A DNA stretch of 64,000 bases from Gammaproteobacteria bacterium. GTDB taxonomy: Bacteria; Pseudomonadota; Gammaproteobacteria; Steroidobacterales; JBCCMA01. Under the pieces are notes generated by a model. It did not search any database and was not told where the DNA came from. It was given only the letters and a program-made list of their open reading frames with translations. Made by a program: the position numbers and the translations under genes. Location of the stretch: NCBI GenBank assembly GCA_045106455.1, contig JBGCEL010000004.1:6434-70433 (forward strand). The letters are read 5' to 3'. Of this stretch, positions 23,314-64,000 are shown piece after piece; the stretch's first letter is position 1, and every line of letters begins with the position of its first letter.

Positions 23314-25227
23314 CTAGCGCGGAATCACCGTGCCGGCATAGATACGCACATAGTCCACCAGCATCTCCACCGGCTCATCGCCATCAAAAATGCTGTCATC
23401 CAAGCCCTGTTGGCCGCCCCAGCCGCCGCCCCAGGCCAGATTCAGAATGAGCTTGAACTCGTTGCCCGCCTCTTTTGCCCACGGCCAACCCAAATGGTCA
23501 TCCAGCGGCGTGTGATCGTGACCGTAGCCATTCATGTCGGGTGCATCGCGAAAGAACCCCTCGCGATCGCCGACCACGCCGTCACCGAGGTCCATCTTCG
23601 TCACCCGAACGTCATCGACGAACATCTCAATGGAACCGGGCTTCCAGACCAAGCGATAAACATGAAAATTTTCGGACACCGGCTCGGCATGGGCGAAGGT
23701 CATGCCCTGCCCCGTTTTGCCGGGGCGTCGATGCGGCCATAAAAAGCCGTTCGACTTATTTCTGTGCAAAGTGTGGTGCGTGCGATGCAGGCCTTGCGCC
23801 TCCTCGAACCCGACCGCTTCCATCAAATCGATCTCACCGGCATCCGGCCAACCAATCGTAAAGGGGCTTTCGGGTGTATGGTCTTTTTTACCCAGCAGCC
23901 AGATGGCAGGCCACGTGCCCCGCCCCGCCGGGACTTTTGCTCGCACCTCATAAATACCGTGCGGCATATCCACCAAATACGGCGTGCCGAAGCCATCTTT
24001 GCGCGTCGAGACCGCGCCGCTGGTGTACTGAAACGTTTGTCCGTTGGCTTGCAAGCAAGACACGTTTTCTTTTTTAAGCTCCAGCACCAGATAGCCGTTG
24101 GACTGGCCTTCCTGCGTGCGCGTCTCAACCCGCACGTTGGAAATGCCGGCATCCTGATACGCGGGGTCATCGCTTGTGTAGCACTGACGTTCGTTGTTAA
24201 TCACGCTACCGGTATTGTAGTCCCAGTAAGCGGGATTAATACGTCCGCCGTGCGTGTCATTAAATTCCTCGTCAAAATGCAGCACATAGTCCGGCGAGAC
24301 CACGGCAAGCGCACTAAAGAAACTTATATTTGGACTGCCTTCGCTCGCCACGGTCGATGCATTGGTGCGTACTTCAATATTGTGGTGCACCGTTGCCGTC
24401 GCCGTTTCGTATGCACACCGGTAGAGCGGGCGTGCTTCGCGCACGTCACAGATTTTTACGCCGTCCACAAAAAGACGAAACCACTGCGTGTCAGGCACCG
24501 AAGCCGCAAACGTGATCGGCGTATTGGTCGCCACACTGTGGGTGGAATCCGGGAACAGCACGATATCGCCCGCCTCCCCGCCAACGGTCAGCGCGCTAAA
24601 AAACTGCTGATTGGGGTTATCTGGTGTCACCACAAGTTCGGTGTTGGTGCGCACCTCGACTTCGTAGCGTCCTGTGGCCACCGGCACGGTATACGCGCAT
24701 TGATATACAGGACGGGGTTCGCGCAGGTCGCAAATCTTGACGCCGTTCACAAACATTCTGAACCACGCCGTGCCGGGCACTTGCGCCTGCAACACCACCT
24801 GCGAACCCGCCTGCACATCGTGCTCTGAATCGGGCGTCAGACTGATCGCGGAGCTACCGGTTTCACTAACCAGCGTGCTGAAGAAGCTCGCATTGGGGCT
24901 GTCCGGCGTAACTTGCGTGGAGCGATTGGTACGCACCTCTACCTGCACGCTCCCGGCCACCGCCGAGGTGGTATAGCGACAGACGTAGAACGGTCGCGGC
25001 TGGCGCACATCACAAATCTTGACGCCGTCCACGAACAGTCGAAACCACGCCGTGTTGGCCACCTGAGCGACAAGCGTTACTTCCGTGTTCGCCGTCACGA
25101 AATGCGAAGACCCTGAGGTCAACACGAAATTTGAAGCGCTTTGGGCCGAAAAAGACGGCGCGGCGGTTTCGCCTGCACAGGCGGTGAGAGAAAGAGCGAT
25201 CAAAACAATCGAGAAAACATACTTCAT
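23314..25227 (-). CDS. GH16 beta-glucanase (laminarinase-type) lipoprotein with three N-terminal tandem modules
   Basis: Start re-picked at ATG 25227, giving MKYVFSIVLIALSLTAC (lipobox). C-terminal GH16 domain with FDEEFND..., catalytic GEIDLMEAVG (ExDxxE) and ...VDYVRIY. Confidence 0.85.
   Translation of the reverse strand: MKYVFSIVLIALSLTACAGETAAPSFSAQSASNFVLTSGSSHFVTANTEVTLVAQVANTAWFRLFVDGVKICDVRQPRPFYVCRYTTSAVAGSVQVEVRTNRSTQVTPDSPNASFFSTLVSETGSSAISLTPDSEHDVQAGSQVVLQAQVPGTAWFRMFVNGVKICDLREPRPVYQCAYTVPVATGRYEVEVRTNTELVVTPDNPNQQFFSALTVGGEAGDIVLFPDSTHSVATNTPITFAASVPDTQWFRLFVDGVKICDVREARPLYRCAYETATATVHHNIEVRTNASTVASEGSPNISFFSALAVVSPDYVLHFDEEFNDTHGGRINPAYWDYNTGSVINNERQCYTSDDPAYQDAGISNVRVETRTQEGQSNGYLVLELKKENVSCLQANGQTFQYTSGAVSTRKDGFGTPYLVDMPHGIYEVRAKVPAGRGTWPAIWLLGKKDHTPESPFTIGWPDAGEIDLMEAVGFEEAQGLHRTHHTLHRNKSNGFLWPHRRPGKTGQGMTFAHAEPVSENFHVYRLVWKPGSIEMFVDDVRVTKMDLGDGVVGDREGFFRDAPDMNGYGHDHTPLDDHLGWPWAKEAGNEFKLILNLAWGGGWGGQQGLDDSIFDGDEPVEMLVDYVRIYAGTVIPR
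24295..25131 (-). repeat. three tandem 94-aa protein modules (unknown fold, possible carbohydrate-binding/Ig-like) inside the GH16 gene
   Basis: Period is about 94 aa (modules of 94, 94 and 91 aa as I delimit them). The shared core is (A/T)WFR(L/M)FV(D/N)GVKICD(V/L)R(Q/E)(P/A)RP(F/V/L)Y(V/Q/R)C(R/A)Y...EVEVRTN...(T/G)(P/S)(D/P)(S/N)PN...FFS(T/A)L. Each copy has a conserved Cys pair. Confidence 0.7.
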
Positions 25228-25469
25228 GAAAAAAAAATCCTGAGGCCTGAGCACGGCAGTCTTAACGTAATTCGGCCGAAGTATAACGCAACCCACGCGG
25301 TAACAATTTTCCATATTGTGCAAATTCTTGTGGCAAAGCCCGCGGCCATTGACGCCAATTTGACCTGTGTCCCAATTCCCCCACGACATTATTCCCATCC
25401 GGCCACGCACGCTTTAGATTGATGGAGATCCACCGCTAACGGCCTAACGACGTTCAAACCGACCCCTCT

Positions 25470-29351: not shown

Positions 29352-29400
29352 GACCTTCACACACATAACGCTCCGCCAGAACACTCTGAGAAACACCACG

Positions 29401-30807: not shown

Positions 30808-30814
30808 CGTACTC

Positions 30815-33800
30815 ATGACACGCAAACGATCATCCAGACGGCCCGCAAACGCACTGTCGTTTGCGGTCGAGGCGCTTGAGCCGCGGCTGTTGCTGTCGGC
30901 GGACTGGGCGCTGGGCCTGGCGCCGGATGATGTGCGCGATGATCCGTTCGATCTGGATGCCGCCGCGGCCCATCGAGTGTTACGTGCACTCGGTTCTGAA
31001 GCCCCGTTGCCCGCCTCGATGGATCTGGAACATTTTATGGCACTGCAGCCGGCGACGCCGGAATTTGCCAATGATCAGTCCTTGGCAGAGAAGCCGTCGC
31101 GCACCGATTTTAGACTGCTATCCGGCGATGCCCCGCAAAGTGTTGACGACGGCTATTCGGTAAACGAAGACGAATCGATCACGTTCAACGCCGTGTGGTT
31201 CGACCCGGATTGGATCGCACGCCGTGAACTCACCATCGACAACAGCGCCAGCGCCACTGATCTCAACGACTTTCCGGTATTGATCACGCTCGACGCATCG
31301 CGTATCGACTACAGCCTTACCGAGGATGACGGCGACGATCTGCGCTTCACGGATGACGCCGGCAATCTGCTGGATTACGAGATCGAGCTGTGGGACGAAA
31401 GCGGCACGTCTTACGTATGGGTTCGAGTGGACAGCATTACGGCCGGCTCGACGACCGAGAGTATTTACATGTATTACGGCAATTCCAGCGCCGGCGAAGG
31501 GCAATCGCCCCGGGACGTCTGGGATGCCAACTATCAGCAAGTCCAGCATTTGGAGGAAACAAGCGGCAACTACGATGATTCCACCGCCAATGGTGTTGAC
31601 ATCAGTCTTAGCGGCGGCGACCCCCACGGCGACGACATGTTCATCGGTCCCGCCCATGCTTTTGACGGCACCAACGAACTCGACAGCCAACCTGAAGCAC
31701 TCGATGACAGTCGCGCTGCCGGCACAATTTCCATGTGGGTGGAATTTGATGAGCGCTCCGGCGTGATCAACCTGCTGACCTCGGACGTCGCGCGCGATCA
31801 AGCGATTTGGACTGACGACGGTACGTTTCACGTAGCAATGGCCACGAACTTGTTTACCTTTAGTAACCTGTCCGGAGGGTCGATCGAAAACGGCTGGAAT
31901 CAGGTCGTATTCACTTGGGACAGCGTCACCGGCGAACAGGCGCTTTACGCCAACGGCCTATTGGTCGATCAGGTATCGGTGGGCGCATGGGACCCGGATG
32001 GCGTGGACGGCAACACCATCAACATCGGTGGCGCCGCCGACGCCTTTCTGGGCTTTTTTCCCGAGCGCGACGGCCTCCAGGGCGGCATCGATGAAATACG
32101 CGTGTCCGACGTGGCGCGCTCGGCCGATTGGGTGGCCGCACAGTTCGCCACCATCAACGACAATTTTATTAGCTATGGTGCCGAAGAAGGGGCTGCCCGC
32201 GGCGTGCTGGAAAACGACACCGATGCCGAGAACGATGTGCTGGCCGCGGTCCTTGAAACCGGTCCGAGCAATGCCGCATCGTTTACGCTGTTTGCCGACG
32301 GCAGTTTCGAATACACGCCGCAGGCCAATTTCGTCGGCACCGACTCGTTTACCTACCGCGCCGATGACGGCAGCAGTCTCTCGGCGGCCGCGGCGACGGT
32401 CACCATCACCGTCAACGCGGTGAACGACGCCCCGACGTTCACGCTTGGCGGCGCACAGAACGTGAACGAAGATGGCGGTGGACAGAGTGTGGCGAATTTC
32501 TCCGTCGCCTCTGCGGGAGGCGGCGCTGATGAGTCGGGCCAAACGTTTACGTACATCGTCACCGGCGACAACCCGGGCCTGTTTTCGGTAGCACCGAGTA
32601 TTGATGCGGACGGCACACTTACCTACACGCTGGCACCTAACGCCGTTGGCAGCGCCAACCTGACCGTGCAGATGTCCGATTCCGGTGGCACGGCCAATGG
32701 CGGTAGTGACGCCGCTGTCGCGGAAAACTTTGTGATCAACGTTGCTCCCGTAAACGACGCACCTTCGGCCACGTTACTTGGCAACCAAACGGTCGTCGAG
32801 AATGCCGGCCCGCAGGCAGTGGCAAACTTTGCCGCCGGTTTTACGGGTGGTGGCGCGGATGAGAGCGGGCAAAACTTGTCTTATACGGTCATAACCGGTT
32901 TTCCCGCGCTGTTCAGCGCTGCTCCGGCCATCTCTCCCGACGGCACGCTGACGTTCACATTTGCCGACGGGATGTCTGGCTCCACCACGGTGGACGTGAT
33001 TGTCAGGGACGATGGGGGCACTGCGAATGGCGGTCAAGACACCTCTACCACCTACACCTTCACTCTGACCGCGACGCCGGCGTCGGTACCGCCGACGGCG
33101 CTGAACATGGATCAGACACTCAGCTACATTGAAGACAACACGCTCGACCTCGCGAACATCATTGTCAGCGACGGCGATGCCGGCGATGTGATTACCGCAA
33201 CGCTCACGCTGGCCGATCCATTGGCAGGTAGTTTGAGCACGCTCAGCGGCGCAGGCGAAACGTACGTAGCGGCCACGGGACGCTGGCGCATCGTGGGCAC
33301 GCAAGCCGAAGTGAACACCGCACTCGCCAACGTCACGTTCGTCCCGGCTGCCAACTACGCGCTGGATACGAGCATTGCAGTGAATATTCAAGATGCGGAC
33401 GGAACCGGCCCTGCGGATGGGCTGATCGAGCTTAACGCCCTGGCCGTTAACGATGCGCCCTCCGCAACGCTCGCAGGCGACGTCAACGTTTTGGAGAACT
33501 CAGGACCACAAACCATCGCCGGATTTGCGGTTGGATTTGTCGGTGGCGGTACTGATGAGGCCGGTCAAGCACTCACTTATATAGTGAGCGCTGATCAGGT
33601 CAACATGTTTAGCAGCGGCCCGGTGATTTCCTCGGACGGCACCCTGAGCTTCACCACCGCGGACAACGTTACCGGCAGTGCAACCGTTCGCGTGCGCGTG
33701 ATCGACGATGGCAACACCGCCAATGGCGGGCAAAATCAGTCGGTCGACTACACGTTCAATATCATCATCAATGATCGGCCCGATGCACCGACGACCACCA

Positions 33801-51062: not shown

Positions 51063-54000
51063 TTAGTCGAGAATATCCTCTGATCTTAACGTAACCACCA
51101 CCGAACGCACCTTGCCCTCACGCAGAAACAAATGATTGGACACATCCGCCGGTAGCTCAAGCGCGGTAAAATGTTGGCTTTTCCCGTCGGCCTCGAACAC
51201 CTCGACCCCAGCCGGCCCCGACGCATCAAGACGATAAATGATCAACACCTGACACCATGTGAAGGCCAGCGCCTGCGCCGGTACGCTGGCGGTTTTCCAG
51301 TCTTGGTCCACATTTAGATAGCGCAGCGAGCCGGCTTGCGTCGCAAACTCGCGGCGCCGCAAAAGACTCGGCTCGAATTTCACCTGTCCATTGGTCACCC
51401 GAATACCCAGCTCGGCAAACCGCGTCAGCACTTCTTCTTTGACCTGACCGGTCATACCCGGCTGCTGCGCGCCGGCGTGTTTTGGTGTGTGGGAATAGGG
51501 ATCGGTGGGAAACGCACCGTACTCGGCCGGCGTCTTGTTAAACCCGATGCCCTCACGCACGCGATAATAATGTTCTGCCAACTGCACACAAACGGCGTTG
51601 TCGCTACCCTGCTCGCGGGCCGCGAAATAATTTTCCTGAATCGCCAGCAACAGCTTTGACACCATGTGCCAGTAGATGCTGCCCAATCCCTCAAAACCAA
51701 ACATGCCACCCGAACGACCGGTAAACGCTTTGTGATTGAACACCTGTTCATACAAAGCCAACAATGGCTCGCGCGACGCAGACATCTGCGCCGCGTAGTG
51801 ATCACCAAGATCGGCCAGAGCCGCCTCCAGGGCATCGGCATTGGTCAGCGCGGCCGCAAAGCGCCAGGTGCCAACCGCATCGCGTTCAATGAGTCGGCGA
51901 TCATCATTCTCGATCATCGCGTTAAGCAGAGGATTAGCCAGCACGTCTTTCTCAGGCACGCGATTTTTCTGCAGCCAGTTCGGTAAATCTCGATCCGGGT
52001 ACAGCAAAAACGAACGCTGATCTGCGCGATAGAGCGCGCTGCCAAACAAGGTATTCAAAAGCGCCACCGCCTCGGCGGGCGCCACCGCCCCCGAACTCAG
52101 CGCGGCCACCTGACCTTCCAGCATCGGATACAAGGTATCCACCTCAGCCGTACCGTCGTTAAGCTCCAAAAGGTTGTAGGCCTGATACAAACCGTCTTCG
52201 CGTTTGCCGCTTACGATGCTGTGATCGATGACCATCAGAGCGTCATCGAGCAACGATCGCACGTCGCTCATCGCAATGTTGCGCGAGCCACTGAAACGTT
52301 CATTGGCGTACAGCGTGAGTCGATAGGCGCTCGCCGCACCGCCAAGTGCCTGCAACAGGGCCAGACGTCGCGTTGCGTCCAATGGCCCCTGGCCGAGATC
52401 GTCACGGACCGCGGCAAGCGCCGTCGCCGTACTCTCCAGCCATTCCACCACCTCTGCAGACAGCTCGACACTCTGTGTATCGCCGTCGATCAAGCTTGCC
52501 ATCCAGCGCACGTAGCGGCGCATGTAATAGAGCGTGACCATCGAAAGTCCCTGACCCACGAGCGCATTGTTCGCATCGTTCCATTCAGGTCGTTGTGTAT
52601 TGAGCCAAATGCCGCCGTCTACCACCAGGTTGCTGAGCTTGGCCAGCAGTGGCACCACGAGTTTTTCCAGCAGGTTGACCTGATACACGGCGCCGGCGCC
52701 GTCCTGGAGCAACTTGCCGTCGGCGCCCATGGCGGCCACACGTGCCTCGATGCGATCGGCTAAATCGTGGTCGTACTCGACCGTGCTTGCCGCGTCGTGC
52801 ACCAGATCGTCGAATGGCTTAATGCGATACGGCACGTTCGCGTAGCTGTACACGCGGTCTCTAAGACCGTGGGCGATGCGTCCCGGAAAAAATTGCTCGG
52901 ACAGTTCCAGCAGCTTGAGCAGATAAATAATTTGGTGATCGCCCCAGTAGCCAATGTAGCTCCACGGATCGTCGGGCTCTTCCACCTCCCAGTCGATTCC
53001 GTCGCTGGTAATGCGATAGGGGTTGTAACCATCCACCGTGGAGGCGTTCACAAATTTGGCGATGATGTTGTCAACAAAATCCGGGAACGAATACAGCAAT
53101 GCTTCCCAATTTTGAAAGATGTCGCGCCAGTTGCCCTGATAGGCCAAAAGACGACGCCCCTGATCATCGTTGAGTCGAATCGCAAACTGGTTCCACGGAC
53201 GACTGGGATCACCGTGCCGACGGCCAAAACGCAGCGGCAAGAATTCATGGCCAAGACGCGTAAGACCGGCATCGCCGATCTTTTCAATTCGCGTGCGCAT
53301 ATCGCTAACGCTCAACGACTCGGGCCACTGCGCAATAGCCGCACTGCAGCGGGCAGCCAGCGGCGCATTGAAACGCTGCAGGTGGCGCTCGAAGTGCTTT
53401 CGCGGCACGCGATAGTTTTCATCGAAAATACCACCACGCATCACGTTAAACAGCACGTTGGCATAGTGATGCGTTGAGACATTTTCTTCGGCCGTCCACT
53501 GCATGCCATCGCTCGCGCCCATAATCCGGGCCAGACCATCGCTGCCACGTTCTACAGAGGCCTGTAGCAACGCATCGATGTTCTCGCTGGTGTGCAGCTG
53601 CTCGCGCAATCTCACCACATCGGACTGGGTTTGCTCTGTGTTGGCGACCAGCGACCAGCGTTTGGGCTGGTTGGGTTCCAGAGTAAGCGTGGCAACCTGC
53701 AGATAGGACCCACGCACACCACGATTGTGTATCTCATCGATCAGCGTCTCGCCACGGCGAAAGGACGCGATTGGGTGGCTACTAAGAAGCGTGCGGGGGT
53801 TTGGCAGGCCCGTGCCAAACACTGTGGTCGCACGCAACGACTCGCACGGCTCCGCACGATCCGTAATCCCTGAGAACAGCGTGAACAATGCCAGCTGCGA
53901 GTCCGTCTCAAACTCGTTCCACTTATACGCATCCACCAGATTACTGGCCATCGCCTGCGTGCCGCGCGGCGTTCCCGCCGGGAGAATATTCTGGATGCCG

Positions 54001-54494
54001 TCGAGCACCTCTACGCGGCGCGCCGCCGAGCTCGTGCTGACCAGCTCTGCGCGACGCACAAAGCCGTACTCCTCGCAGGTACTCCATAAATAGCGAAACG
54101 TCAGCCCGAGAGTCTGATTAGTTTCCTCAAACAGCAGCTTATCGCCAAGGGTGTTTTTGTACAGGTTCCGCTGCACCTCGAAACGCCCGTCGTGTTCGCG
54201 ATTAAACGGCTCCCAAATAACCTCACCGTTTGCGCCCGCAACACGCAGCAGCGTTTTGCACCCGGTATGTAATGCACTGTCGTAAATCTGGTCGACCGCG
54301 GAGTACGGAAACAACGCCGTCTCGGGCGAGACGCGGCCCGCCGTAATGCCACCGTTGGAGGCGACAAACAGCCAGTGGTCGCTGTCCGACACCACGCTAA
54401 TAAAAAACGGCGCCATCTGATCGACGTTTTCAATCGCGTAGAAACGCTCGTCGCCAAGCGAAACGAAATGTCCCGTTACGCCGTGTTGATTCAT
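51063..54494 (-). CDS. large cytoplasmic conserved protein, possibly (alpha/alpha)6 glycoside phosphorylase/hydrolase-like
   Basis: Uninterrupted coding frame of 1143 aa from ATG 54494 (track start 54548). No signal peptide. RPEWNDANNALVG resembles the (D/E)WND catalytic-acid motif of GH94-clan phosphorylases. It sits among beta-glucanase genes. The functional call is low-confidence. Confidence 0.45.
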   Translation of the reverse strand: MNQHGVTGHFVSLGDERFYAIENVDQMAPFFISVVSDSDHWLFVASNGGITAGRVSPETALFPYSAVDQIYDSALHTGCKTLLRVAGANGEVIWEPFNREHDGRFEVQRNLYKNTLGDKLLFEETNQTLGLTFRYLWSTCEEYGFVRRAELVSTSSAARRVEVLDGIQNILPAGTPRGTQAMASNLVDAYKWNEFETDSQLALFTLFSGITDRAEPCESLRATTVFGTGLPNPRTLLSSHPIASFRRGETLIDEIHNRGVRGSYLQVATLTLEPNQPKRWSLVANTEQTQSDVVRLREQLHTSENIDALLQASVERGSDGLARIMGASDGMQWTAEENVSTHHYANVLFNVMRGGIFDENYRVPRKHFERHLQRFNAPLAARCSAAIAQWPESLSVSDMRTRIEKIGDAGLTRLGHEFLPLRFGRRHGDPSRPWNQFAIRLNDDQGRRLLAYQGNWRDIFQNWEALLYSFPDFVDNIIAKFVNASTVDGYNPYRITSDGIDWEVEEPDDPWSYIGYWGDHQIIYLLKLLELSEQFFPGRIAHGLRDRVYSYANVPYRIKPFDDLVHDAASTVEYDHDLADRIEARVAAMGADGKLLQDGAGAVYQVNLLEKLVVPLLAKLSNLVVDGGIWLNTQRPEWNDANNALVGQGLSMVTLYYMRRYVRWMASLIDGDTQSVELSAEVVEWLESTATALAAVRDDLGQGPLDATRRLALLQALGGAASAYRLTLYANERFSGSRNIAMSDVRSLLDDALMVIDHSIVSGKREDGLYQAYNLLELNDGTAEVDTLYPMLEGQVAALSSGAVAPAEAVALLNTLFGSALYRADQRSFLLYPDRDLPNWLQKNRVPEKDVLANPLLNAMIENDDRRLIERDAVGTWRFAAALTNADALEAALADLGDHYAAQMSASREPLLALYEQVFNHKAFTGRSGGMFGFEGLGSIYWHMVSKLLLAIQENYFAAREQGSDNAVCVQLAEHYYRVREGIGFNKTPAEYGAFPTDPYSHTPKHAGAQQPGMTGQVKEEVLTRFAELGIRVTNGQVKFEPSLLRRREFATQAGSLRYLNVDQDWKTASVPAQALAFTWCQVLIIYRLDASGPAGVEVFEADGKSQHFTALELPADVSNHLFLREGKVRSVVVTLRSEDILD

Positions 54495-55134
54495 GTTCGT
54501 GCTCAATGTACTGCTCCAGTCGCGGCGCCACCTAAGTTGCCACGACACGCTTCAAGTTGTGCCCGCACTGCGTGTGCGCGCTGGTCATTACTGGGAATTT
54601 ATCTGCGACATAAAAATGCGTTCACGATGATACTGACAAGCGTAAAAACGTGCTGACATTTCGCCAGGTTGAGGGCGGCCCTGTCGGCATTGTGATAAAT
54701 CTTGCAGAAGATCCGATGACAATTTTCTCACTGTGGCCTGCCCCCACTAAAACAATCACACTGTGCCCCGGGGGCGCCTATCGAAAACCATGGCGGCCAT
54801 CGCGCCGAAGCACCTTAATTAGACGTCTACGGCCGCGTGGCGAACGTGTATGGTTGGCGCTGACGCCGAACATGGGTTCGATCAGCGCATCCATACCGTG
54901 CAACAGCGCGGCGTCCCGACCAGCGCAACCATCAGGCTGGCACTCGGATTTAACACAATCAGCCTGCGGCCCGATGCGTGGGCCCGGAGACGACCCGCGA
55001 ATGCCTACTGGCGATCAATTATCATATGTTTCAATGACATCCAATTCATGGATGCACGAACAAGGCAGGCTTCCACGCACATTTTCATATGCCCTGTATC
55101 CCAATGGCTACAAAATTGATGCCCTATCGTCCGC

Positions 55135-55220: not shown

Positions 55221-58200
55221 ATGTCCTCACAACCGATTCCTCGTTTAGCTCGCTTTGCCGCGCTCGCGCTCATTCTGACCGGCTTGGCCGGCTGTTTTGG
55301 CGACGGCGACGGACCCGAGCGCATCCCGGGCACCCCGCAGCCCATGGTCACCGGCCTGCTTATTGATGCGCCCATTAGTGGCGTGGCCTACCGCACCTCT
55401 GGCGGTGACGAAGGTACGACGAGCGCAGCCGGTGAGTTTCTGTACATCGAGGGCGAGTCGATTGCCTTTACGATCGGCGGCATCGAATTGGGTTCGGTGC
55501 CCGGCGCACCGATCATCACGCCGGTTGGCCTGACGCGCAGCAGCGACCCCAATGACACCTCGGCGGTTAATCAGTTGGTGTTCTTGCAAAGCCTGGACTC
55601 GGACGGGGACCCGAGCAACGGCATCACCATCGCCACCAGCGTAGCCAGCAGTGCCGACGGTCGTTCGCTTGATTTTGCCTCACCCACCTTCCGCGATGAC
55701 GCGATGGCGCTGCTTGGACAAATCGCGCCCGGCGCGATGTTGATCAGCAATGACGAAGCACTCAGCAACTTCTACGCAACGTATGCCGAAATGGGCGGCA
55801 TCGATACGTTTGGTTTTGCGTTTGCGGGCTTCCCGCCGGTTGGTGGCGATACCGGATTCGAACTTATTTTCTCGGACGAATTCAACACCGATGGGGCACC
55901 CGACGCGTCGAAATGGAACTTCGAGACCGGCTATGGCAGCAACAACAGCGGCTGGGGCAACAACGAGTGGCAGCTCTACACAACCGCCACCGACAACGTC
56001 CGCGTGGAAGACGGCAATCTGGTGATTCAGGCTCGTTGCGACACGCCGCCCTGCGGCGTCCGTGATGGCACCGTCACCTCGGCGCGACTCAATACCAAAG
56101 ACAAATTCGAATTCAAATTCGGCAAAGTGATCGCACGCATCAAACCACCCGTGGGTGAGGGATCGTGGCCGGCCTTCTGGTCTTTGGGCGCCAACTTCCC
56201 CGAAACGCCGTGGCCACGTGCCGGCGAGATCGATTTCATGGAAATGTTCCCGACCGTTTCCAACGATCGCACCACACACTTTACGATGCACTGGTGCGAC
56301 CAGACTATTCAGGCACCAGAAACCTGCAGTTTTCCGGAAGGCCGCGTGTTCGATTCACAAAGCCGCGAATTCCCACAAGCGCTGGGCGACGACTTCCACA
56401 TTTTTGAAGCCGACTGGAACGGTACTCAGATCACCGGAAAAATGGACGGCGTTGACGTGTTCTCGCGCAACATTGAAGCCGCCACCATGGAAGAATTTCT
56501 GCGTGAGTTCTTCCTGATCCTGAACGTCGCCATGGGCGGCACGCTCGGCAGCGACAACCAGCCACCGAGCGGCGACGAAGTGTGGCCGCAAACCATGCTG
56601 GTCGACTATGTGCGCGTGTTCCAACGCACCGGTGACGGTGTGATTGACGACACCACCATCGACTTTGAAGACGCGCCCGAAAGCTACGATTTTGGTATGG
56701 ACGGCGGCTTTGGCGGCGGTGCTGCACAGGTACTGGCCAACCCGGTCAGCGAAGGCATCAACACCAGCGCACAAGTGGGCCGCATGCTTAAATTCGCCGG
56801 CGAACCGTTTGCCGGTTCGAGCCTGACGCTGCCCACGCCATTGGAAATTCCAGGCGGCGGCACGTTCACCATGAAGGTGTGGTCGCCACGCGCTGTCAAC
56901 GTGCTATTGAAACTCGAAGGCGGCACCACCGAGCCCGAGATCAACATTCCCCACGGCGGTACGGGCTGGGAAGAACTCAGTTTTAGTTTCGACAACTTTA
57001 GCGGCTCGTTTAGCGCGCTGACGTTTATTTTCGATCTGGGTATTGTTGGCGATGCGACCAATGATCCGGACAACTGGACGTTCTACTTTGATGACATCGT
57101 CGTGCCCACCGGCAACGGCGGTGGCCCTGATCCCGATCCAGAAGAACCCGAAGCGTTCTTCTCCGACTTTGAAGATGCACCGGAATCTTACGACTTCGGT
57201 TTGGACGGTGGCTTCGGCGGCGGTGCCGCCCAGGTACTGGCCAACCCGGTACCCGGTGGCATCAACACCAGCGCGCAGGTCGGTCGCATGCTCAAATTTG
57301 CCGGCGAACCGTTTGCAGGCTCACTGCTGACGTTGCCCGCCCCGATTGATGTTGTGGCAGGCAGCTCGTTCAACATGAAAGTCTGGTCGCCGCGACCCGT
57401 ACGTGTGCTGTTCAAACTCGAAGGCGACACCGACGCCGAGGTGGAGGTGAACCACGGCGGTACCGGCTGGGAGCTGTTGAACTTCTCGTTCCCCAATTAC
57501 GCCAGCACGGTGCAGGGAATAACGCTGATTTTTGATCTGGGTACCATTGGTGACGCCACCGGCGATCCGGACAACTGGACGTTCTACTTCGACGACATCG
57601 AGCAGGTACCACCACAGCCGGTGATGCCGCCAAGCCTTGCGCAGATCGATCTGCCGATTACGTTTGACGATCCGATGGTCGACTACACGGTGGTGGACTT
57701 CGGTGGCGCGGTCACCACATTGGTCGTTGATCCGGAAGATGGCGACAACATGGTTGCCTCCACGCTCAAGCCTGCTGGCGCCGAAACGTTTGCGGGTACA
57801 ACGGCCAGCACCGTGGATGGTTTGGCCACGGCCATCCCCTTCTCGCCGACGCAAACGACCATCGGCATTCGCGTCTACTCACCCGACGCTGGCATTCCCG
57901 TGCGCATGAAAGTAGAAGACGCCGACGATGGTGACATCGCGGTGGAAGCCGAACTCTTGACCACCGTCGCCAACGAATGGGAAACGCTGGTGTTCGATTT
58001 CACCAACGTCGTCACGGGCCCCGCACTGGATCTGTCGCAGAGCTATCGCAAGATCAACGTGTTTTTCAACTTCAACACTGACGGCGATACGGCGGGTGCT
58101 AAAACCTACCTGTGGGACGACGTGGAGTTTGGCGTACCGGCACCGGTGGTCGATGACACGCCACCTACGCTGACCGCGGTAAGCATCGTCTCTGACAATG

Positions 58201-61200
58201 CCAACCCGCTGCTTGCTACGACCGGCAACACGCTCACGCTGTCGTTCACGGCGGACGAGCCAATCGAGACTCCCACCGTCATGATCGGCGGTATGGCCGC
58301 CGCCGTCAGCGGCGCGGCCACCACGTGGGAGGCCACTCGCGTGATTGACAGCGGCGACGCCGACGGTGCCGTCGCTGTGTCCATTGCGTTCGCCGATCTG
58401 GCCGACAACGTTGGCACAACGGTCACCGCCACCACCGACAACAGCAGTGTGACGGTGGACGCCACCGCGCCCACCGCGACCTTGAGCGGTGCGCCGGTCG
58501 ACTTCACCTCACTGGACGCCATTGCCCTGACGCTGACCTTCAGCGAAGCGGTTAGCGGCCTCGAGCTCGCTGACATCGTGGTCACCAACGGTGCGGCGAG
58601 TGCGCTGATGGCCGTTGATGCAACGACCTACACCGTCAACGTCACGCCCAGCGGCGCCGGCGACCTGATGGTGGCCGTGGCCGACGGCGCGGCCGTTGAT
58701 GCGGCCGGCAACGTCAGTAGCGCGGCCACGATGATCTCGGTCACGAACAATCTGGACGCGGATGCACCGCTGCTGACGGCCATTGCCATTGCCTCGAACA
58801 ACGCCAACCCGGCACTCGCGGTCACCGGCGACGTGGTCACGCTCACGATGACGGCCAACGAAGACATCGTCGCGCCCACCGTCGTGATTGGTGGCGCACC
58901 GGCCGATTTGATTACCGGCGCGGGCGCTACTTGGACGGCCACGCGGACCCTGCTGGCCACCGATACCGAAGGCCCGGTTGCGTTCCTGATCACGTTTGAA
59001 GATTTGGGCGGTAACATCGGTCAGGCGGCGAGTGTCACCACCGATGGCTCTGCCGTCGAATTCGACATTTCGGCACCGGCCGCGCAAATCACCGGCCTGC
59101 CCGCCACGATTCAGACGCTGGATGCGATTGCCGTCACCGTCACGTTTGATGAAGACGTGACCGGCTTTGAGGCCGGCGATCTTGCCGTGACCAACGGCGT
59201 GGCCGCTGACTTCACGGCGGTGGATGCCACCACCTACACCGCCAACGTGACACCGGATGGCATTGGTGCGCTAAGTATCACGGTGGCTGCGGATGTCGCC
59301 TTTGATGCGGCCGGCAACGGCAACAGCGCCGCCGCGGTCTCGGCTGATCTGGATCTGCAGCCGCTGTGGACACTCACCTGGTCCGACGACTTCGACGGCA
59401 GTGCGCTCAACGACGCCAACTGGACCGCGCGTACCGATGCGGATTGTCCGGCACCGTGCGCAGGCGTGCAGAGCTACACCGCGGATAACATTATCGTAGC
59501 GGCTGGTGCACTCACGATTGAAGGCCGCGAAGAAGCCGGATCGACCTACTCGTCAGCGCTGATCGACACGCGGGGCAAGCTCGAGCTCACCCACGGTCGT
59601 ATCGAGATCGACGCACGCATGCCGGGCACGCTCGGCACCCTGCCCTCGCTGTTCCTGCTGCCGGTCGACGATGCCTATGGACCGTGGCCGCAGTCGGGTG
59701 AAATCGATCTGGCCAACGCGCCGGACCTGGGCATTGGCAGCAACGCCACGCTTGAGCACACGCTGCAGTACGGCCTGCCGGTACCGGAAAACACCGTCAC
59801 GACGGGCACGTCCGAACCGGCCAACCCGGCATTGAGCAACACACTGACCTATGCCCTGGAGTGGGAAGCCGGCGAGATTCGCTGGTTTGTTGACGGCGTT
59901 CACGTGGCCACGCAAACCCAGGACAACTGGTATTCGTATGGTGAGGACGCCGACGGCGTGTACACGCTCGGCACCGATGCCGCACCGTTTGATCAAAACT
60001 TCTATCTGGCCATCGGCCTTGGCATTGCCGACACGGCTGGTGCCGGTTCAACCTTCCCGCAATCGCTGCAGATTGATGCGGTACGCGTATACGAATGCGC
60101 CAACGCCATCGATCCTGTCGCGGGCACGGGTTGCAGCACGGGCGATGCCGGCGTCATGCCGATCACCGCCCCAAGCGAACCCTACACCGAGTCGCTGGAT
60201 GTCTACGTGGATGCCCCGGCAACGTTGAGCTTTGTTGACGAAGCCGATCCGGGCACGCCGGTGATGCAAGCGCTGGCGGTCGCACCGGTCGAAACCGGTG
60301 GCGCCACGGTCAACACTAACAACACCGGTGCCATCGATGGTACGGATGTGGTGTGGAGCCTCGACATCAATGCCGCCGCGGGCAGCGCCGGGGTCACGGT
60401 CAGTGCTATGGACAACGGTCCAACCACCGGCTTTTTCGATCTGACCGGCGGTGAAACGGCCGGCGAGATTCTGTTCCGCATGCGCGTCGAGTCGGCCACC
60501 GCCGGCACGGACATCAGCGTGGGCTTCGATGGCGCCGCGGGCGCTGCGGGCCGTGATGCCCTCACCTTTACCGCCGACGGACAGTGGCAACAGTACTCGG
60601 TGAAAATTGCCGATGTGGTCACCGCCTCGGTGGGCGCCGGCACCACGCTCGATATGGCGAACCTCACGGCGTTGTTTGCGCTCAACGTCACGGGCGGCTC
60701 GGCGGTCTTTAGTTTGGACGACATCGAAGTGGTCGTCGCCTGCCGTGAGACCGGCACCTGCCAAGCTACGCCGCGGATTCCCAATGTGGTGGTGACCACG
60801 GTCTATGGTCCGCAGGACTTCGAATCGCTGGACATTATGGGCGCGGACATCGGCGACGGCTGGCGCTACTTCATTAATGTGTTTGAAGGCCCCAGCTACC
60901 TGTTTGGCTACGGCAATCCGGCTCCGAACGGACCGCAAATCTCGGCCATCGCGACCGGCGAAGGCGGCGCTGAACAAGGTCTGCAACAGTTCTCGGTCTA
61001 CAGCGACTATGAGTGCTGTCCGGGCGGCGGGCCTGGCGGCACGCCATCTGGCCATCAAAGCGCCAACGGCTTGGTGGAAACCAACGTCTTCATCGAAGCG
61101 CGCGGCGTCGGTGGATCATCGATTTCGGCGGACGACGTGGGTGACACGTGGACGTTTACGTTCGATGCGAAACGCGGCAATCTGGGCGGCGCATCGCGCG

Positions 61201-61433
61201 CCTTCGCGTTCATCAAGGTGCTCAATCCAACCGCCGGGTTCTCCACCACGGACGTCACTCAGGTGGAACTGACCGCCTCGGCCGCCGACTGGGACACCTA
61301 CACGCTGGAATTGACCATTGGTGAATGGATTGGTCAGGTTCTACAGTTCGGCTTCCAGACCACGGCCGCAGGTTTTGAACCGTCCGGCGTGTTCTACGAT
61401 AACGTCGAAGTTACGAGTATCGATGGTCCATAG
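55221..61433 (+). CDS. 2070-aa multidomain beta-glucanase lipoprotein with two GH16 modules, CBM-like and Ig-like repeats
   Basis: Lipobox LILTGLAGC. GH16 module 1 at about 55860-56630 (FSDEFNTDG..., GEIDFMEMF, VDYVRVF). GH16-like module 2 at about 59360-60100 (WSDDFDGS..., GEIDLANAP, IDAVRVYE). Repeated CBM-like and Ig-like modules lie between and after them. Confidence 0.85.
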   Translation: MSSQPIPRLARFAALALILTGLAGCFGDGDGPERIPGTPQPMVTGLLIDAPISGVAYRTSGGDEGTTSAAGEFLYIEGESIAFTIGGIELGSVPGAPIITPVGLTRSSDPNDTSAVNQLVFLQSLDSDGDPSNGITIATSVASSADGRSLDFASPTFRDDAMALLGQIAPGAMLISNDEALSNFYATYAEMGGIDTFGFAFAGFPPVGGDTGFELIFSDEFNTDGAPDASKWNFETGYGSNNSGWGNNEWQLYTTATDNVRVEDGNLVIQARCDTPPCGVRDGTVTSARLNTKDKFEFKFGKVIARIKPPVGEGSWPAFWSLGANFPETPWPRAGEIDFMEMFPTVSNDRTTHFTMHWCDQTIQAPETCSFPEGRVFDSQSREFPQALGDDFHIFEADWNGTQITGKMDGVDVFSRNIEAATMEEFLREFFLILNVAMGGTLGSDNQPPSGDEVWPQTMLVDYVRVFQRTGDGVIDDTTIDFEDAPESYDFGMDGGFGGGAAQVLANPVSEGINTSAQVGRMLKFAGEPFAGSSLTLPTPLEIPGGGTFTMKVWSPRAVNVLLKLEGGTTEPEINIPHGGTGWEELSFSFDNFSGSFSALTFIFDLGIVGDATNDPDNWTFYFDDIVVPTGNGGGPDPDPEEPEAFFSDFEDAPESYDFGLDGGFGGGAAQVLANPVPGGINTSAQVGRMLKFAGEPFAGSLLTLPAPIDVVAGSSFNMKVWSPRPVRVLFKLEGDTDAEVEVNHGGTGWELLNFSFPNYASTVQGITLIFDLGTIGDATGDPDNWTFYFDDIEQVPPQPVMPPSLAQIDLPITFDDPMVDYTVVDFGGAVTTLVVDPEDGDNMVASTLKPAGAETFAGTTASTVDGLATAIPFSPTQTTIGIRVYSPDAGIPVRMKVEDADDGDIAVEAELLTTVANEWETLVFDFTNVVTGPALDLSQSYRKINVFFNFNTDGDTAGAKTYLWDDVEFGVPAPVVDDTPPTLTAVSIVSDNANPLLATTGNTLTLSFTADEPIETPTVMIGGMAAAVSGAATTWEATRVIDSGDADGAVAVSIAFADLADNVGTTVTATTDNSSVTVDATAPTATLSGAPVDFTSLDAIALTLTFSEAVSGLELADIVVTNGAASALMAVDATTYTVNVTPSGAGDLMVAVADGAAVDAAGNVSSAATMISVTNNLDADAPLLTAIAIASNNANPALAVTGDVVTLTMTANEDIVAPTVVIGGAPADLITGAGATWTATRTLLATDTEGPVAFLITFEDLGGNIGQAASVTTDGSAVEFDISAPAAQITGLPATIQTLDAIAVTVTFDEDVTGFEAGDLAVTNGVAADFTAVDATTYTANVTPDGIGALSITVAADVAFDAAGNGNSAAAVSADLDLQPLWTLTWSDDFDGSALNDANWTARTDADCPAPCAGVQSYTADNIIVAAGALTIEGREEAGSTYSSALIDTRGKLELTHGRIEIDARMPGTLGTLPSLFLLPVDDAYGPWPQSGEIDLANAPDLGIGSNATLEHTLQYGLPVPENTVTTGTSEPANPALSNTLTYALEWEAGEIRWFVDGVHVATQTQDNWYSYGEDADGVYTLGTDAAPFDQNFYLAIGLGIADTAGAGSTFPQSLQIDAVRVYECANAIDPVAGTGCSTGDAGVMPITAPSEPYTESLDVYVDAPATLSFVDEADPGTPVMQALAVAPVETGGATVNTNNTGAIDGTDVVWSLDINAAAGSAGVTVSAMDNGPTTGFFDLTGGETAGEILFRMRVESATAGTDISVGFDGAAGAAGRDALTFTADGQWQQYSVKIADVVTASVGAGTTLDMANLTALFALNVTGGSAVFSLDDIEVVVACRETGTCQATPRIPNVVVTTVYGPQDFESLDIMGADIGDGWRYFINVFEGPSYLFGYGNPAPNGPQISAIATGEGGAEQGLQQFSVYSDYECCPGGGPGGTPSGHQSANGLVETNVFIEARGVGGSSISADDVGDTWTFTFDAKRGNLGGASRAFAFIKVLNPTAGFSTTDVTQVELTASAADWDTYTLELTIGEWIGQVLQFGFQTTAAGFEPSGVFYDNVEVTSIDGP
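56661..57600 (+). repeat. two tandem ~150-aa CBM-like modules
   Basis: Copies at about 56661-57100 and 57165-57600 share DFEDAPESYDFG(M/L)DGGFGGGAAQVLANPV..GINTSAQVGRMLKFAGEPFAGS.LTLP...MKVWSPR.V.VL.KLEG...HGGTGWE.L.FSF...DPDNWTFYFDDI. A third, more divergent module follows (about 57640-58130). Confidence 0.7.
58150..59360 (+). repeat. duplicated pair of Ig-like modules ([X-Y]x2)
   Basis: X: TPPTLTAVSIVSDNANPLLATTGNTLTLSFTADEPIETPTVMIGG vs DAPLLTAIAIASNNANPALAVTGDVVTLTMTANEDIVAPTVVIGG. Y: DATAPTATLSGAPVDFTSLDAIALTLTFSEAVSGLELADIVVTNG vs DISAPAAQITGLPATIQTLDAIAVTVTFDEDVTGFEAGDLAVTNG. Confidence 0.7.
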
Positions 61434-61447: not shown

Positions 61448-61492
61448 TCACAACCCCAACAAACTTGAGTCAAAAAACAAAGAGTAGTCACA

Positions 61493-64000
61493 ATGACGAA
61501 TGTAGGTTTTTCCACACGCAGCACTTCGCTCGTCGCGAGGCTGACCCTCGCCCTGCTGATGTGCATGGCCATCAGTGGGCAGGCACACGCCGCCGATAAG
61601 GTCACAACGTTCAAGGACGACAACGGCTGGAAGCTGCTCGTCAACGGCGAGGACTACTACATCAAGGGGATCGTGTGGAGTTACAGTCCGCGCGGGCAAA
61701 ACTACTCGTACAATCTGTGGGGCGAATCGGACGAGAAAATCCGCGCCATACTGGACTACGACTTTGCATTGATGCAGGCGGCCGGTGTCAACACCATCCG
61801 CAGCTTTATGATGCTGCCGCCCAAGTGGGTCACATACGTGTACGAGACCTACGGCATCCGTACGGTCATCAACCCGCTCATGGGCCGTTACGGCTATCTC
61901 GTGGGGGGGCGCTGGATTCCAAACACCGACTACTCCGACCCGCTCACTCGCGCCACGCTCAAAAAAGACATGCTCGACATCGTCAACACGTACAAAGACG
62001 TGCCCGGCGTGTTGATGTTCGCGTTTGGTAACGAGAGCAACTACGGCCTGTCCTGGTCCAGTTTTGAGATTGAAAATCTGCCCGAGGGCGAGCGCAACAC
62101 GGAGAAGGCGCGCTACCTGTACAGCCTGTTCAACGAGGTGATGAAGGCCGGTAAGTCAATTGCCCCCAATCACCCGTTCACCATCGTCAACGGCGACATT
62201 CAGTACATCGATCTGATTGCAGAATACTGCACCGACATGGATCTTTTGGGCAGCAACGTCTACCGCGGCAAAAGCTTCACCAGCCTGTGGGAAGAAGTGG
62301 ACAAGAAACTCGACATGCCGGTGGTGTTTTTCGAGTTTGGCAGTGATGCGTTCAACGCGCGCGAAGGCCGCGAAGACGGACCGGCTCAGGCAGGGCTCCT
62401 GCGTGACCAGTGGCAGGAGATGTACAACAAATCCTACGGCAACGGCGAGGAAGGCAACTCCAGCGGCGGTTTCGTTTTTGAATGGCGTGACGAATGGTGG
62501 AAGTACCTGCAGGAAGAAAATCTGGAAGTGCACGACGACAATGCCTCGTGGTCCAACCAAGGCTATCCGTTTGACTGGGCGCCGGGCCAGAACAACATGA
62601 ACGAAGAGTGGTTCGGCATCGTCGCATTGGGTTTGCCCAACGCAGACGGCGTATATGAAGCCCGCCCGCGCATGGCCTATGACGTGCTCTCCGAGATCTT
62701 TCATATGGACCCATATGAAATGAAAAAAGACGCGTTCAACCAAAAAATCGCCACCATAAACATGGATTATCTGGAGCTCAAAAGCGATGTTCGTGAGATC
62801 AAGAGCAAACAGGTCGAAGACGATCAGGTGCTCAAATTCGCCGGCGGCAGCCTGCTGACGCGCTTTGTGCTCAAGGGCACGGAAAACGCCATTTCCGAGA
62901 GCGGCGAAAACGGCGTTGAATTTTCTGACGGTCAGCTGTTGTTCATGGATTTTGAATTCAAACCCACCGAAAAAATTGACGGCCAGTTCACGGTCAACGT
63001 TCTGGGCGATGTCGCGGACCTCGAACCGCTGGAAATCGTTTACGGACGGCGTGGTTTGCCCGTGCAGGTGGTGGGCTTCGGCACCACCGATCAGGGTGTG
63101 GAAGTACAGACAGTACAAACTTTCACGGATCGCGAGCGCGTCGAGATTTACGATTTCGAAGCCAAGTACGTGGGCGAAGATTTCGACGTCACCGCGTTTT
63201 ATCACACGCCGCGTTATCACTGGAAATACAAAGGCGATTTCTTTGGACTGGTGCGTGAAGCCACCGACATCTACGGCGCCGATATCTGGAACGCGAAAGC
63301 GCCCGAAGGTGTGGAGTTCGTCGGCAAGGGTCGTTACGAAGGCCTGACCATTTTGGGCGGACCGGAAGTGTACTGGGGCGCCAACCCGAAAGTCGTGGGC
63401 AAATACAGCTCCAAATTCCGCAACACGGACTGGACCTTTATTCACTCCGAAGACGTGTCGCGTCTGGCCGCCGGCGTCGCCGCAACGCTTGCCACCGTGC
63501 GTCAATCGCGTCAGACCACGCTGTACACCAAGACGCCCATCGGTCCGGCCAAACTTGAGCTGGGCGCCATGCTCGCCAGTGGCGAGCGCGTCGGCGATCA
63601 ATACGATCGCGTGGTACGCGGCAACATCTTGCTCGATGAAATCGACTTTGAAGACACGATTGCCTTGCGCACGCGTTTCACGTTCCCGTTTTTGGGCACT
63701 CAAACCTACATTGCGACCAACCACGCCGGCCTTGTCGCCGAGGGCGGTGACGTCCTGCGCGAATTCGGCACGCGTCTGCCCTACTCCAATCTCGGTAACA
63801 CCGAAGAATACGAGATGGGCATGATGATGAACTTTGGCAATCTGATGATCTTCCCGCGCTTGCTGTATCGCCAGAACCTCGTGGATGCCAACCCCAATCT
63901 GCCCTCGTCCATTGAAAACGGCGTGTTGATGCCCGGCATCGCCATTCGGGATCGCGACGCCGATCCGTTCGCGGTGCTTGGTAACCGCGAAGCCCGCGCC
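61493..64000 (+). CDS. secreted TIM-barrel (clan GH-A-like) glycoside hydrolase, 3' end beyond the window
   Basis: Absent from the track because it runs off the right edge; the frame is open from ATG 61493 to 64000. Signal MTNVGFSTRSTSLVARLTLALLMCMAISGQAHA. GH-A-like hallmarks: VNTIRSF and VLMFAFGNESNYG (NE acid/base motif). The 522-aa track ORF 62156-63724 (-) is its antisense shadow. Confidence 0.7.
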   Translation, partial: MTNVGFSTRSTSLVARLTLALLMCMAISGQAHAADKVTTFKDDNGWKLLVNGEDYYIKGIVWSYSPRGQNYSYNLWGESDEKIRAILDYDFALMQAAGVNTIRSFMMLPPKWVTYVYETYGIRTVINPLMGRYGYLVGGRWIPNTDYSDPLTRATLKKDMLDIVNTYKDVPGVLMFAFGNESNYGLSWSSFEIENLPEGERNTEKARYLYSLFNEVMKAGKSIAPNHPFTIVNGDIQYIDLIAEYCTDMDLLGSNVYRGKSFTSLWEEVDKKLDMPVVFFEFGSDAFNAREGREDGPAQAGLLRDQWQEMYNKSYGNGEEGNSSGGFVFEWRDEWWKYLQEENLEVHDDNASWSNQGYPFDWAPGQNNMNEEWFGIVALGLPNADGVYEARPRMAYDVLSEIFHMDPYEMKKDAFNQKIATINMDYLELKSDVREIKSKQVEDDQVLKFAGGSLLTRFVLKGTENAISESGENGVEFSDGQLLFMDFEFKPTEKIDGQFTVNVLGDVADLEPLEIVYGRRGLPVQVVGFGTTDQGVEVQTVQTFTDRERVEIYDFEAKYVGEDFDVTAFYHTPRYHWKYKGDFFGLVREATDIYGADIWNAKAPEGVEFVGKGRYEGLTILGGPEVYWGANPKVVGKYSSKFRNTDWTFIHSEDVSRLAAGVAATLATVRQSRQTTLYTKTPIGPAKLELGAMLASGERVGDQYDRVVRGNILLDEIDFEDTIALRTRFTFPFLGTQTYIATNHAGLVAEGGDVLREFGTRLPYSNLGNTEEYEMGMMMNFGNLMIFPRLLYRQNLVDANPNLPSSIENGVLMPGIAIRDRDADPFAVLGNREARA

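Follow-up and report, generated by a model that had tools for sequence, protein, structure and literature searches.

Does a glycoside hydrolase module that has lost its catalytic acid/base remain an enzyme, or is it kept for something else? The question is raised by a gene for a 2070-amino acid (aa) protein with two modules of glycoside hydrolase family 16 (GH16), found in a stretch of 64,000 nt (called here the window: positions 6,434 to 70,433 of contig JBGCEL010000004.1, GenBank assembly GCA_045106455.1, from a Gammaproteobacteria bacterium of the Steroidobacterales). A preliminary description of this DNA had reported that the second GH16 module (module 2) lacks the acid/base Glu, and had suggested that it may be a lectin-like beta-glucan-binding module or may have altered chemistry. 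Our analysis favors a different answer: module 2 is probably a pseudo-enzyme, with a GH16_3 fold whose cleft was dismantled in the ancestor of a clade and which has been kept for a non-catalytic role.

Module 2 taken alone matched the Pfam family Glyco_hydro_16 (PF00722) with E = 7.9e-9 and 35.6 bits, the curated cut-off being 22. Its sequence matches in the Protein Data Bank (PDB) spanned E-values from 1e-26 to 1e-17 and included the solved GH16 laminarinases 3ILN (1e-26), 2HYK (1.2e-23) and 3ATG (6.7e-23). An AlphaFold2 model of the module (mean pLDDT of 82.8) superposed on the GH16_3 laminarinases 4DFS, 3ATG and 2HYK at a TM-score of about 0.8 in Foldseek, so that both a fold of the beta-jelly-roll type and significant similarity to GH16_3 structures were found. 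The nearest solved structures were all GH16_3 laminarinases, which points to a placement of module 2 in this subfamily. When aligned to the solved laminarinases, the GEIDLAN segment of module 2 fell on GEIDIAE or GEIDIME, with Asn1499 at the position of the acid/base Glu, and the motif that is EXDXXE in enzymes reads E-I-D-L-A-N. The reported absence was thus borne out; the preliminary description had allowed that an alignment or structure might put another Glu or Asp at this position, and Asn stands there. The codons it gave (ggt gaa atc gat ctg gcc aac gcg) are correct and occupy 59697-59720 rather than 59698-59721. In an alignment of 180 GH16 domains the acid/base column was Glu in 168 of the 171 domains outside the clade described below. 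The AAC codon of Asn1499 is two base changes away from GAA or GAG and the substitution is common to the orthologues, therefore a sequencing error does not account for it. A recent duplication of module 1 as the source of module 2 was ruled out by the low identity of the two modules (26%), module 2 being approximately 47% identical to sequences of other lineages.

The clade sharing the loss was defined by a HMMER search of cluster representatives and a scan of contigs, with one genome taken per species. The first returned close relatives at 46-66% identity, which are long multi-domain proteins, and the second returned eleven loci in metagenome-assembled genomes (MAGs) of uncultured Gammaproteobacteria at 54-89% identity. 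One of these loci, L004, duplicates a protein of the representative search (P0025), and in L010 the motif cannot be read. A readable motif was available from 18 distinct sequences, and 16 non-redundant clade sequences were used for invariant columns and variability. Not one of the 18 has Glu at the acid/base position: 14 have Asn, two have Asp, and Lys and Ala occur once each. The nucleophile is Gln in three of them (P0031, L007 and L008) and Glu in the remainder, and the helper Asp is replaced in two, by Val in P0026 and by Glu in L003. In a neighbor-joining tree the clade was monophyletic, with all 16 members together and no intruders. In all loci with a frame reaching module 1 (L002-L007 and L011), the first module has GEIDF[MLV]E and the second has no Glu at the acid/base position. 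A word-indexed protein search with module 2 as the query returned no orthologues: its matches did not exceed 36% identity, and all of them had Glu. With the clade profile as the query it again gave no clade member and nothing above 42% identity, this index not returning these long proteins.

The sister of the clade in the neighbor-joining tree was aa 48-302 of P0046, a protein of the representative search. This degenerate GH16 domain reads GEIAVAE, with Glu kept at the acid/base position, but its binding residues Trp, Arg, Asn and His are gone. Another protein of that search, P0023, has an active module (GEIDIME) and a second, degenerate module (aa 1161-1424) that reads GQVVIME. A tandem of an active and a dead GH16 module seems to have arisen more than once. 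The unreadable locus L010 (10001-10760) and L008 (8-589) are contig ends of one MAG, both breaking inside module 2; the frame of L010 is shifted after about 100 residues, probably as an assembly artefact of the contig end.

Module 2 has been kept under purifying selection. Compared with the closest orthologue, L002, it showed 89% identity and a dN/dS of about 0.06, equal to module 1, these dN/dS values being rough since dS was saturated (above 1). No other region of the 2070-aa protein was better conserved than the two GH16 modules in this comparison. With replaced catalytic residues on a GH16 fold and such a dN/dS, module 2 fits the description of a non-catalytic GH16 homologue (pseudo-glucanase). 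Among the 16 clade sequences 53 columns were invariant, and several of them are specific to the clade. Asp1464 lies in the GRxExR strand, at a position where 76% of active enzymes have Arg. Ala1500 directly follows the acid/base position and is succeeded by Pro1501 in 15 of the 16 sequences, Y1517-G-L and E1523..T1525 belong to the loop downstream of the His strand, and a further invariant segment is T1564-Q..N1569-W-Y. The invariant residues are grouped at NAP and YGLPxPE[DN]T, in the loops after the catalytic strand, and at TQTQDNWY. Because the positive subsites of GH16_3 enzymes are lined by the loop after the catalytic strand and by an aromatic residue facing that loop (PMC6827312), the conserved patch would lie on the former aglycone (positive-subsite) side.

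Most of the sugar-binding cleft has been lost. We compared the clade column by column with the 171 other GH16 domains and drew up a table of 17 key columns with a conservation of 82% or more in those domains. The nearest active relatives keep N-E-R-W-A-W-W-E-D-E-H-H-E-W-N-G-G, bar scattered single substitutions, whereas the clade retains only W1489, E1494, D1496, E1547 and W1548 and is without both Trp of the -1 platform, without Asn and Arg at the -2 subsite, and without the conserved His and N..GG. In the laminarinase ZgLamA the two Trp of W-P-A-x-W (W238 and W242) make up the hydrophobic platform of the -1 subsite, and Asn171, Arg213 and Trp264 constitute the -2 subsite, which is conserved in GH16 laminarinases (PMC4606783). 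GH16_3 is characterized by a Trp pattern, 'WPA...WXX...WPX', together with a conserved His in the strand beside EXDXXE (PMC6827312). Module 2 reads LPS...FLL...WPQ, so that only the third element of the Trp pattern is kept. At the -2 subsite the GWGNxE loop is deleted after a kept CPxPC, Arg is replaced by Leu1447, and Trp1489 alone is retained. The His column, which is His in 93% of the other domains, holds Gln1516 in module 2, and clade members have Q, R, N, V or H there. The most frequent residues at the positions of the old -1 core reached fractions of 0.56, 0.31 and 0.50 compared with a clade mean of 0.72; constraint at this core is relaxed. The preliminary description had found the flanking GH16 blocks of module 2 well conserved. 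Since near-invariant cleft columns are replaced and the -1 core is variable, this applies to the fold-determining blocks and not to many of the cleft residues.

From these observations we propose that the catalytic machinery and the canonical -1 and -2 subsites would have been taken apart in the ancestor shared by a small group of uncultured Gammaproteobacteria, with strong purifying selection retaining the module thereafter. Module 2 would be located in the distal part of a cell-surface beta-1,3-glucanase, well away from the lipid anchor at the N-terminus; the same protein has an intact GH16_3 module and predicted laminarin-binding carbohydrate-binding modules (CBMs). Module 2 would use a remodelled surface instead of the center of the old cleft. 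Judged from its residues, module 2 would not hydrolyse glycans, and its role is most likely that of a non-catalytic accessory for recognition or scaffolding. A more specific proposal, which we put forward tentatively, is that the clade might represent a new family of GH16_3-derived CBMs, with the binding site moved away from the former -1 and -2 subsites to a newly fixed surface formed by NAP, YGLPxPE[DN]T, TQTQDNWY and the invariant Asp1464. Such a module, placed in cis with an active laminarinase and X584 CBMs in a very large surface lipoprotein, might capture a form or decoration of glucan that ordinary CBMs miss, for example branched or helical laminarin.

The preliminary description had suggested a lectin-like module, and it is rather unlikely that module 2 binds beta-1,3-glucan through the old active-site cleft, in the way of an inactivated laminarinase mutant. 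The fold is preserved, the five residues retained by the clade include W1489, equivalent to the -2 subsite residue W264 of ZgLamA, and the nucleophile changes only to Gln, which keeps the capacity for hydrogen bonding. The protein and the locus are directed at beta-1,3-glucan, and nucleophile mutants of ZgLamA still bind laminarin (PMC4606783). However, the residues with which a GH16_3 cleft binds glucan are gone (both -1 Trp, the -2 Asn and Arg, the His and N..GG), the former -1 positions are hypervariable in the clade, and the GRxExR strand carries an invariant charge reversal from Arg to Asp at D1464. The Mycobacterium tuberculosis protein Rv0315 retains more of the site and, in ITC (isothermal titration calorimetry), still did not bind laminarin (PMC4606783), and two or three dedicated CBM X584-like modules are already present in the 2070-aa protein. 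The lectin proposal had leaned on the insect beta-glucan recognition proteins (betaGRP/GNBP), which had been cited as GH16 homologues that act as binding proteins after losing the acid/base. This analogy is weakened, because glucan binding by betaGRP/GNBP maps to a separate N-terminal domain and not to the GH16-like domain. The title of Lee et al. 2009, as cited in PMC6827312, agrees with the N-terminal location.

We consider it equally doubtful that module 2 has no glycan ligand at all and a purely structural role or one in protein-protein interaction, for instance as a rigid spacer or as a docking surface for a partner. The loss of the canonical sugar-binding residues would fit this explanation, as would the position of the module between Ig-like spacers and unassigned beta-rich domains, and strong overall conservation suits a packing or interaction surface. 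A simple spacer, on the other hand, is not expected to top the conservation of the whole protein, level with the catalytic module, and the invariant loop residues Q1565, N1569, W1570, Y1571, E1523 and T1525 appear to resemble a ligand-recognition surface.

Altered chemistry, the other function that had been suggested, is very improbable. Module 2 would still be an enzyme, with Glu1512 or Asp1464, a group of the substrate or an exogenous nucleophile in place of the acid/base. A precedent exists in the GH1 myrosinases, where ascorbate stands in for the missing acid/base. The nucleophile E1494 and the helper D1496 are intact in most orthologues. Glu1512, on the strand paired with the catalytic strand, is found in 13 of the 16 clade members, and the strand register would place it beside Asn1499. 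The other members have N, K or Q at this position, and the partial L009 has Asp. In active GH16 domains the column holds H, Y, S, T or Q. A structure prediction, which had been named as the means of finding a substitute acid, confirmed the fold at the TM-score given above. Of the candidates Glu1512, Asp1502 and Asp1464 none was convincing. The first two are variable, position 1502 being D, N, G or E, and the invariant Asp1464 would lie on a strand toward the negative subsites, away from the scissile bond. The nucleophile, the helper Asp, the acid/base position (which accepts N, D, K and A) and Glu1512 all vary among the orthologues, the -1 sugar platform is missing, and no function that needs these residues could be conserved clade-wide. 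In P0031 and L007, for example, nucleophile, acid/base and Glu1512 are all absent; since, in addition, no acid close to the site is invariant, a catalysis conserved throughout the clade is implausible.

An artefact, be it an error of sequencing or assembly or a pseudogene segment in decay, can be dismissed for practical purposes: a related contig end (L010) does read frameshifted, but the 2070-codon frame is open, Asn requires two base changes from Glu, the same substitution occurs in independent MAGs, and the conservation data, with the low dN/dS, refute it.

A pseudo-enzyme with a non-catalytic role thus remains the explanation that we prefer. Some observations weigh against it. In the window's own copy E1494 and D1496 are intact and Glu1512 stands on the neighboring strand, and a rescued or unusual mechanism in this one member is conceivable. 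The saturation of dS makes the measure of selection rough, and the placement of the conserved patch follows literature descriptions rather than mapped coordinates. As to the retained role, glycan recognition through a relocated site and a scaffold or interaction function both fit the data. With respect to the functions suggested earlier, the implied loss of hydrolysis stands, as a hydrolase is very unlikely, while binding through the cleft is weakened and altered chemistry is unlikely.

The features of the gene and its neighbors are collected in Table 1.

Table 1. Coordinates in the window of the two-module GH16 gene, its domains and the adjoining genes
Feature	Position	Strand	Evidence
Divergent upstream gene, 1161-aa open reading frame (ORF), homologue of beta-1,3-oligosaccharide phosphorylase	51063..54548	-	6HQ6 match
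Complete gene; the 2070-aa multi-domain product has two GH16 modules	55221..61433	+	open 2070-codon frame; Pfam
Signal peptide and lipobox L-A-G-C (Cys25), predicted lipoprotein	55221..55295	+	read from the sequence
GH16 module 1 (aa 205-470), canonical GH16_3 laminarinase, GWGNNE/TSAR/WPAFW/GEIDFME intact	55833..56630	+	2HYK alignment, Pfam
CBM repeat 1 (aa 478-628), homologous to CBM X584, a laminarin binder (PDB 8QX6)	56652..57104	+	phmmer E=2.2e-13
CBM repeat 2 (aa 646-795), 71% identity to repeat 1	57156..57605	+	sequence comparison
Divergent third repeat (aa 809-971), 33% identity to repeat 1	57645..58133	+	sequence comparison
Ig-like (immunoglobulin-like) spacer (aa about 965-1378), Big_12 matches	58113..59354	+	Pfam PF19078, E=3.6e-24
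GH16 module 2 (aa 1380-1627), the GH16_3-derived module under study	59358..60101	+	Pfam, PDB alignments, AlphaFold2
L1474-P-S-L-F1478 in place of the -1 subsite W-P-A-x-W platform	59640..59654	+	column comparison; PMC4606783 for Trp roles
E1494-I-D1496-L-A-N1499, beta-bulge EXDXXE spacing, Asn at acid/base	59700..59717	+	PDB alignments
Two C-terminal domains (aa 1628-2070)	60102..61430	+	family searches without significant match
Downstream co-directional gene, at least 843 aa, reaches window end	61469..64000	+	signal peptide, GNESNYG motif, weak GH158/GH2 TIM-barrel similarity

Module 1 matched 2HYK with E = 1.5e-41 in the PDB sequence alignment and had the full motif set; its GEIDFME reads as the preliminary description had it. 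The repeats at aa 478-795 can be assigned to CBM X584: the phmmer match extends over approximately 100 residues, and 8QX6, whose title in the fold search is 'Novel laminarin-binding CBM X584', was the top Foldseek match of a repeat model that is itself of moderate quality only (pLDDT 71, TM 0.54). The family is described in bioRxiv 10.1101/2023.09.07.556657. CBM X584 has been described mainly from Bacteroidota, and the homologues found here sit in a gammaproteobacterial lipoprotein. A pair of Cys residues (C1626 and C1640) flanks the linker downstream of module 2. For the C-terminal domains, aa 1628-2070, searches of Pfam and of PDB sequences gave no match, and a relationship to the CBM repeats was rejected as the hhalign comparison was not significant. 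Both domains terminate in a CBM-like beta-sandwich strand ('..DDIEV' and '..DNVEV'), which is a hint only.

The adjoining genes also belong to a beta-1,3-glucan context. The phosphorylase ORF matched PDB 6HQ6, which we take to be the GH149 enzyme Pro_7066, with E = 0 and 1114 bits over aa 21-1158; it gave no Pfam match. The phosphorylase is linked in four orthologous loci (L002, L005, L007 and L008), and the downstream gene is syntenic in eight. Judged from its weak similarities, the latter may be a divergent or undescribed beta-glucanase of clan GH-A. A 522-aa ORF on the minus strand (62156..63724) was rejected as the downstream gene: it had no Pfam or PDB match and an implausible composition, and it is an antisense shadow of the plus strand gene. 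Because of the canonical laminarinase module 1, the CBM X584 homologues and the adjoining phosphorylase, the locus is, by prediction, a beta-1,3-glucan utilisation unit with the 2070-aa protein as its surface enzyme.

Further GH16 and large-protein genes lie elsewhere in the window. The motif GEIDLME, correctly read by the preliminary description, had been assigned there to a neighboring small GH16; it is in fact part of a 698-aa ORF on the minus strand (23314..25410), about 30 kb off. In this third GH16 the motif is intact, the domain covers aa about 480-610, and an N-terminal part of about 380 residues is without assignment. At 9493-12291 the minus strand encodes a 932-aa protein with G8 and CEMIP beta-helix domains, and at 25470-36550 (plus strand) three consecutive HlyD-like genes are followed by a gene for a 1954-aa DUF2341/Big_9/cadherin-like protein.

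The presence of a presumably dead GH16 module bears on how such loci are read. Annotation pipelines would count two GH16 catalytic modules in this protein, only one of which is plausibly active, so that the glucanase complement of the lineage would be overstated. Only 0.7% of GH16_3 members are without a catalytic residue (PMC6827312). Here this rare loss defines a conserved monophyletic group and is paired in cis with an active GH16_3 module wherever the frame reaches module 1. The clade is a clear example from nature of a glycosidase fold turned to a new use within a surface protein that harvests laminarin. Should glycan recognition be the retained function, the clade would be a candidate for a new CBM-type family with a part in marine and sediment beta-glucan turnover. 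Our literature searches found nothing relevant on bacterial inactive 'GH16-like' modules fused to active GH16 and did not turn up dead GH16_3 modules that form one monophyletic bacterial clade and are joined in cis to an active GH16_3.

Inactive homologues of GH16 enzymes are already known, among them binding proteins of GH16_4 in metazoans and fungi, Rv0315 and the small GH16_3 fraction mentioned above. With the active GH16_3 laminarinases, such as LamR of Rhodothermus marinus (3ILN), BglF of Nocardiopsis (2HYK) and ZgLamA of Zobellia (4BOW), module 2 shares the beta-jelly-roll, the beta-bulge spacing, the nucleophile Glu, the helper Asp, the WPx Trp, the EW motif and probably the Asp of the Ca site. 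Unlike them it is without the acid/base Glu, WPAxW, the Asn and Glu of GWGNxE, the Arg of YTSAR, the His and N..GG. Rv0315 (4WZF, GH16_9, named an 'inactive/pseudo beta-1,3-glucanase'), which appeared among the fold-search matches of module 2 at rank 50, is likewise a bacterial GH16 fold without the expected glucanase function, and Asn and Arg of the -2 subsite are absent from both proteins. The two catalytic Glu and the two -1 Trp are retained in Rv0315, and the -2/-3 residues are missing (PMC4606783); it is a secreted protein that stands alone. Module 2, in contrast, has neither the acid/base nor the -1 Trp but does have the equivalent of W264, and it is joined in cis to an intact GH16_3 module. 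The metazoan GH16_4 homologues (betaGRP, GNBP and LGBP) are also GH16-derived domains with mutated catalytic residues, retained in proteins related to beta-glucan. A catalytic residue is missing from about 9% of GH16_4 members, and these losses are not monophyletic (PMC6827312). They concern another subfamily and kingdom, whereas the loss in module 2 marks one bacterial clade nested among GH16_3-like sequences. In overall architecture the 2070-aa protein is similar to the multimodular laminarin-binding surface protein Cf-SGBP and the enzyme Cf-GH16_3 of Christiangramia forsetii (bioRxiv 10.1101/2023.09.07.556657), with which it has in common the lipoprotein nature, an elongated build of many domains, Ig-like spacers, repeated CBMs for laminarin and a GH16_3 catalytic module; it differs from them in being gammaproteobacterial and much larger, and in having the additional, presumably dead GH16 module and two unassigned C-terminal domains.

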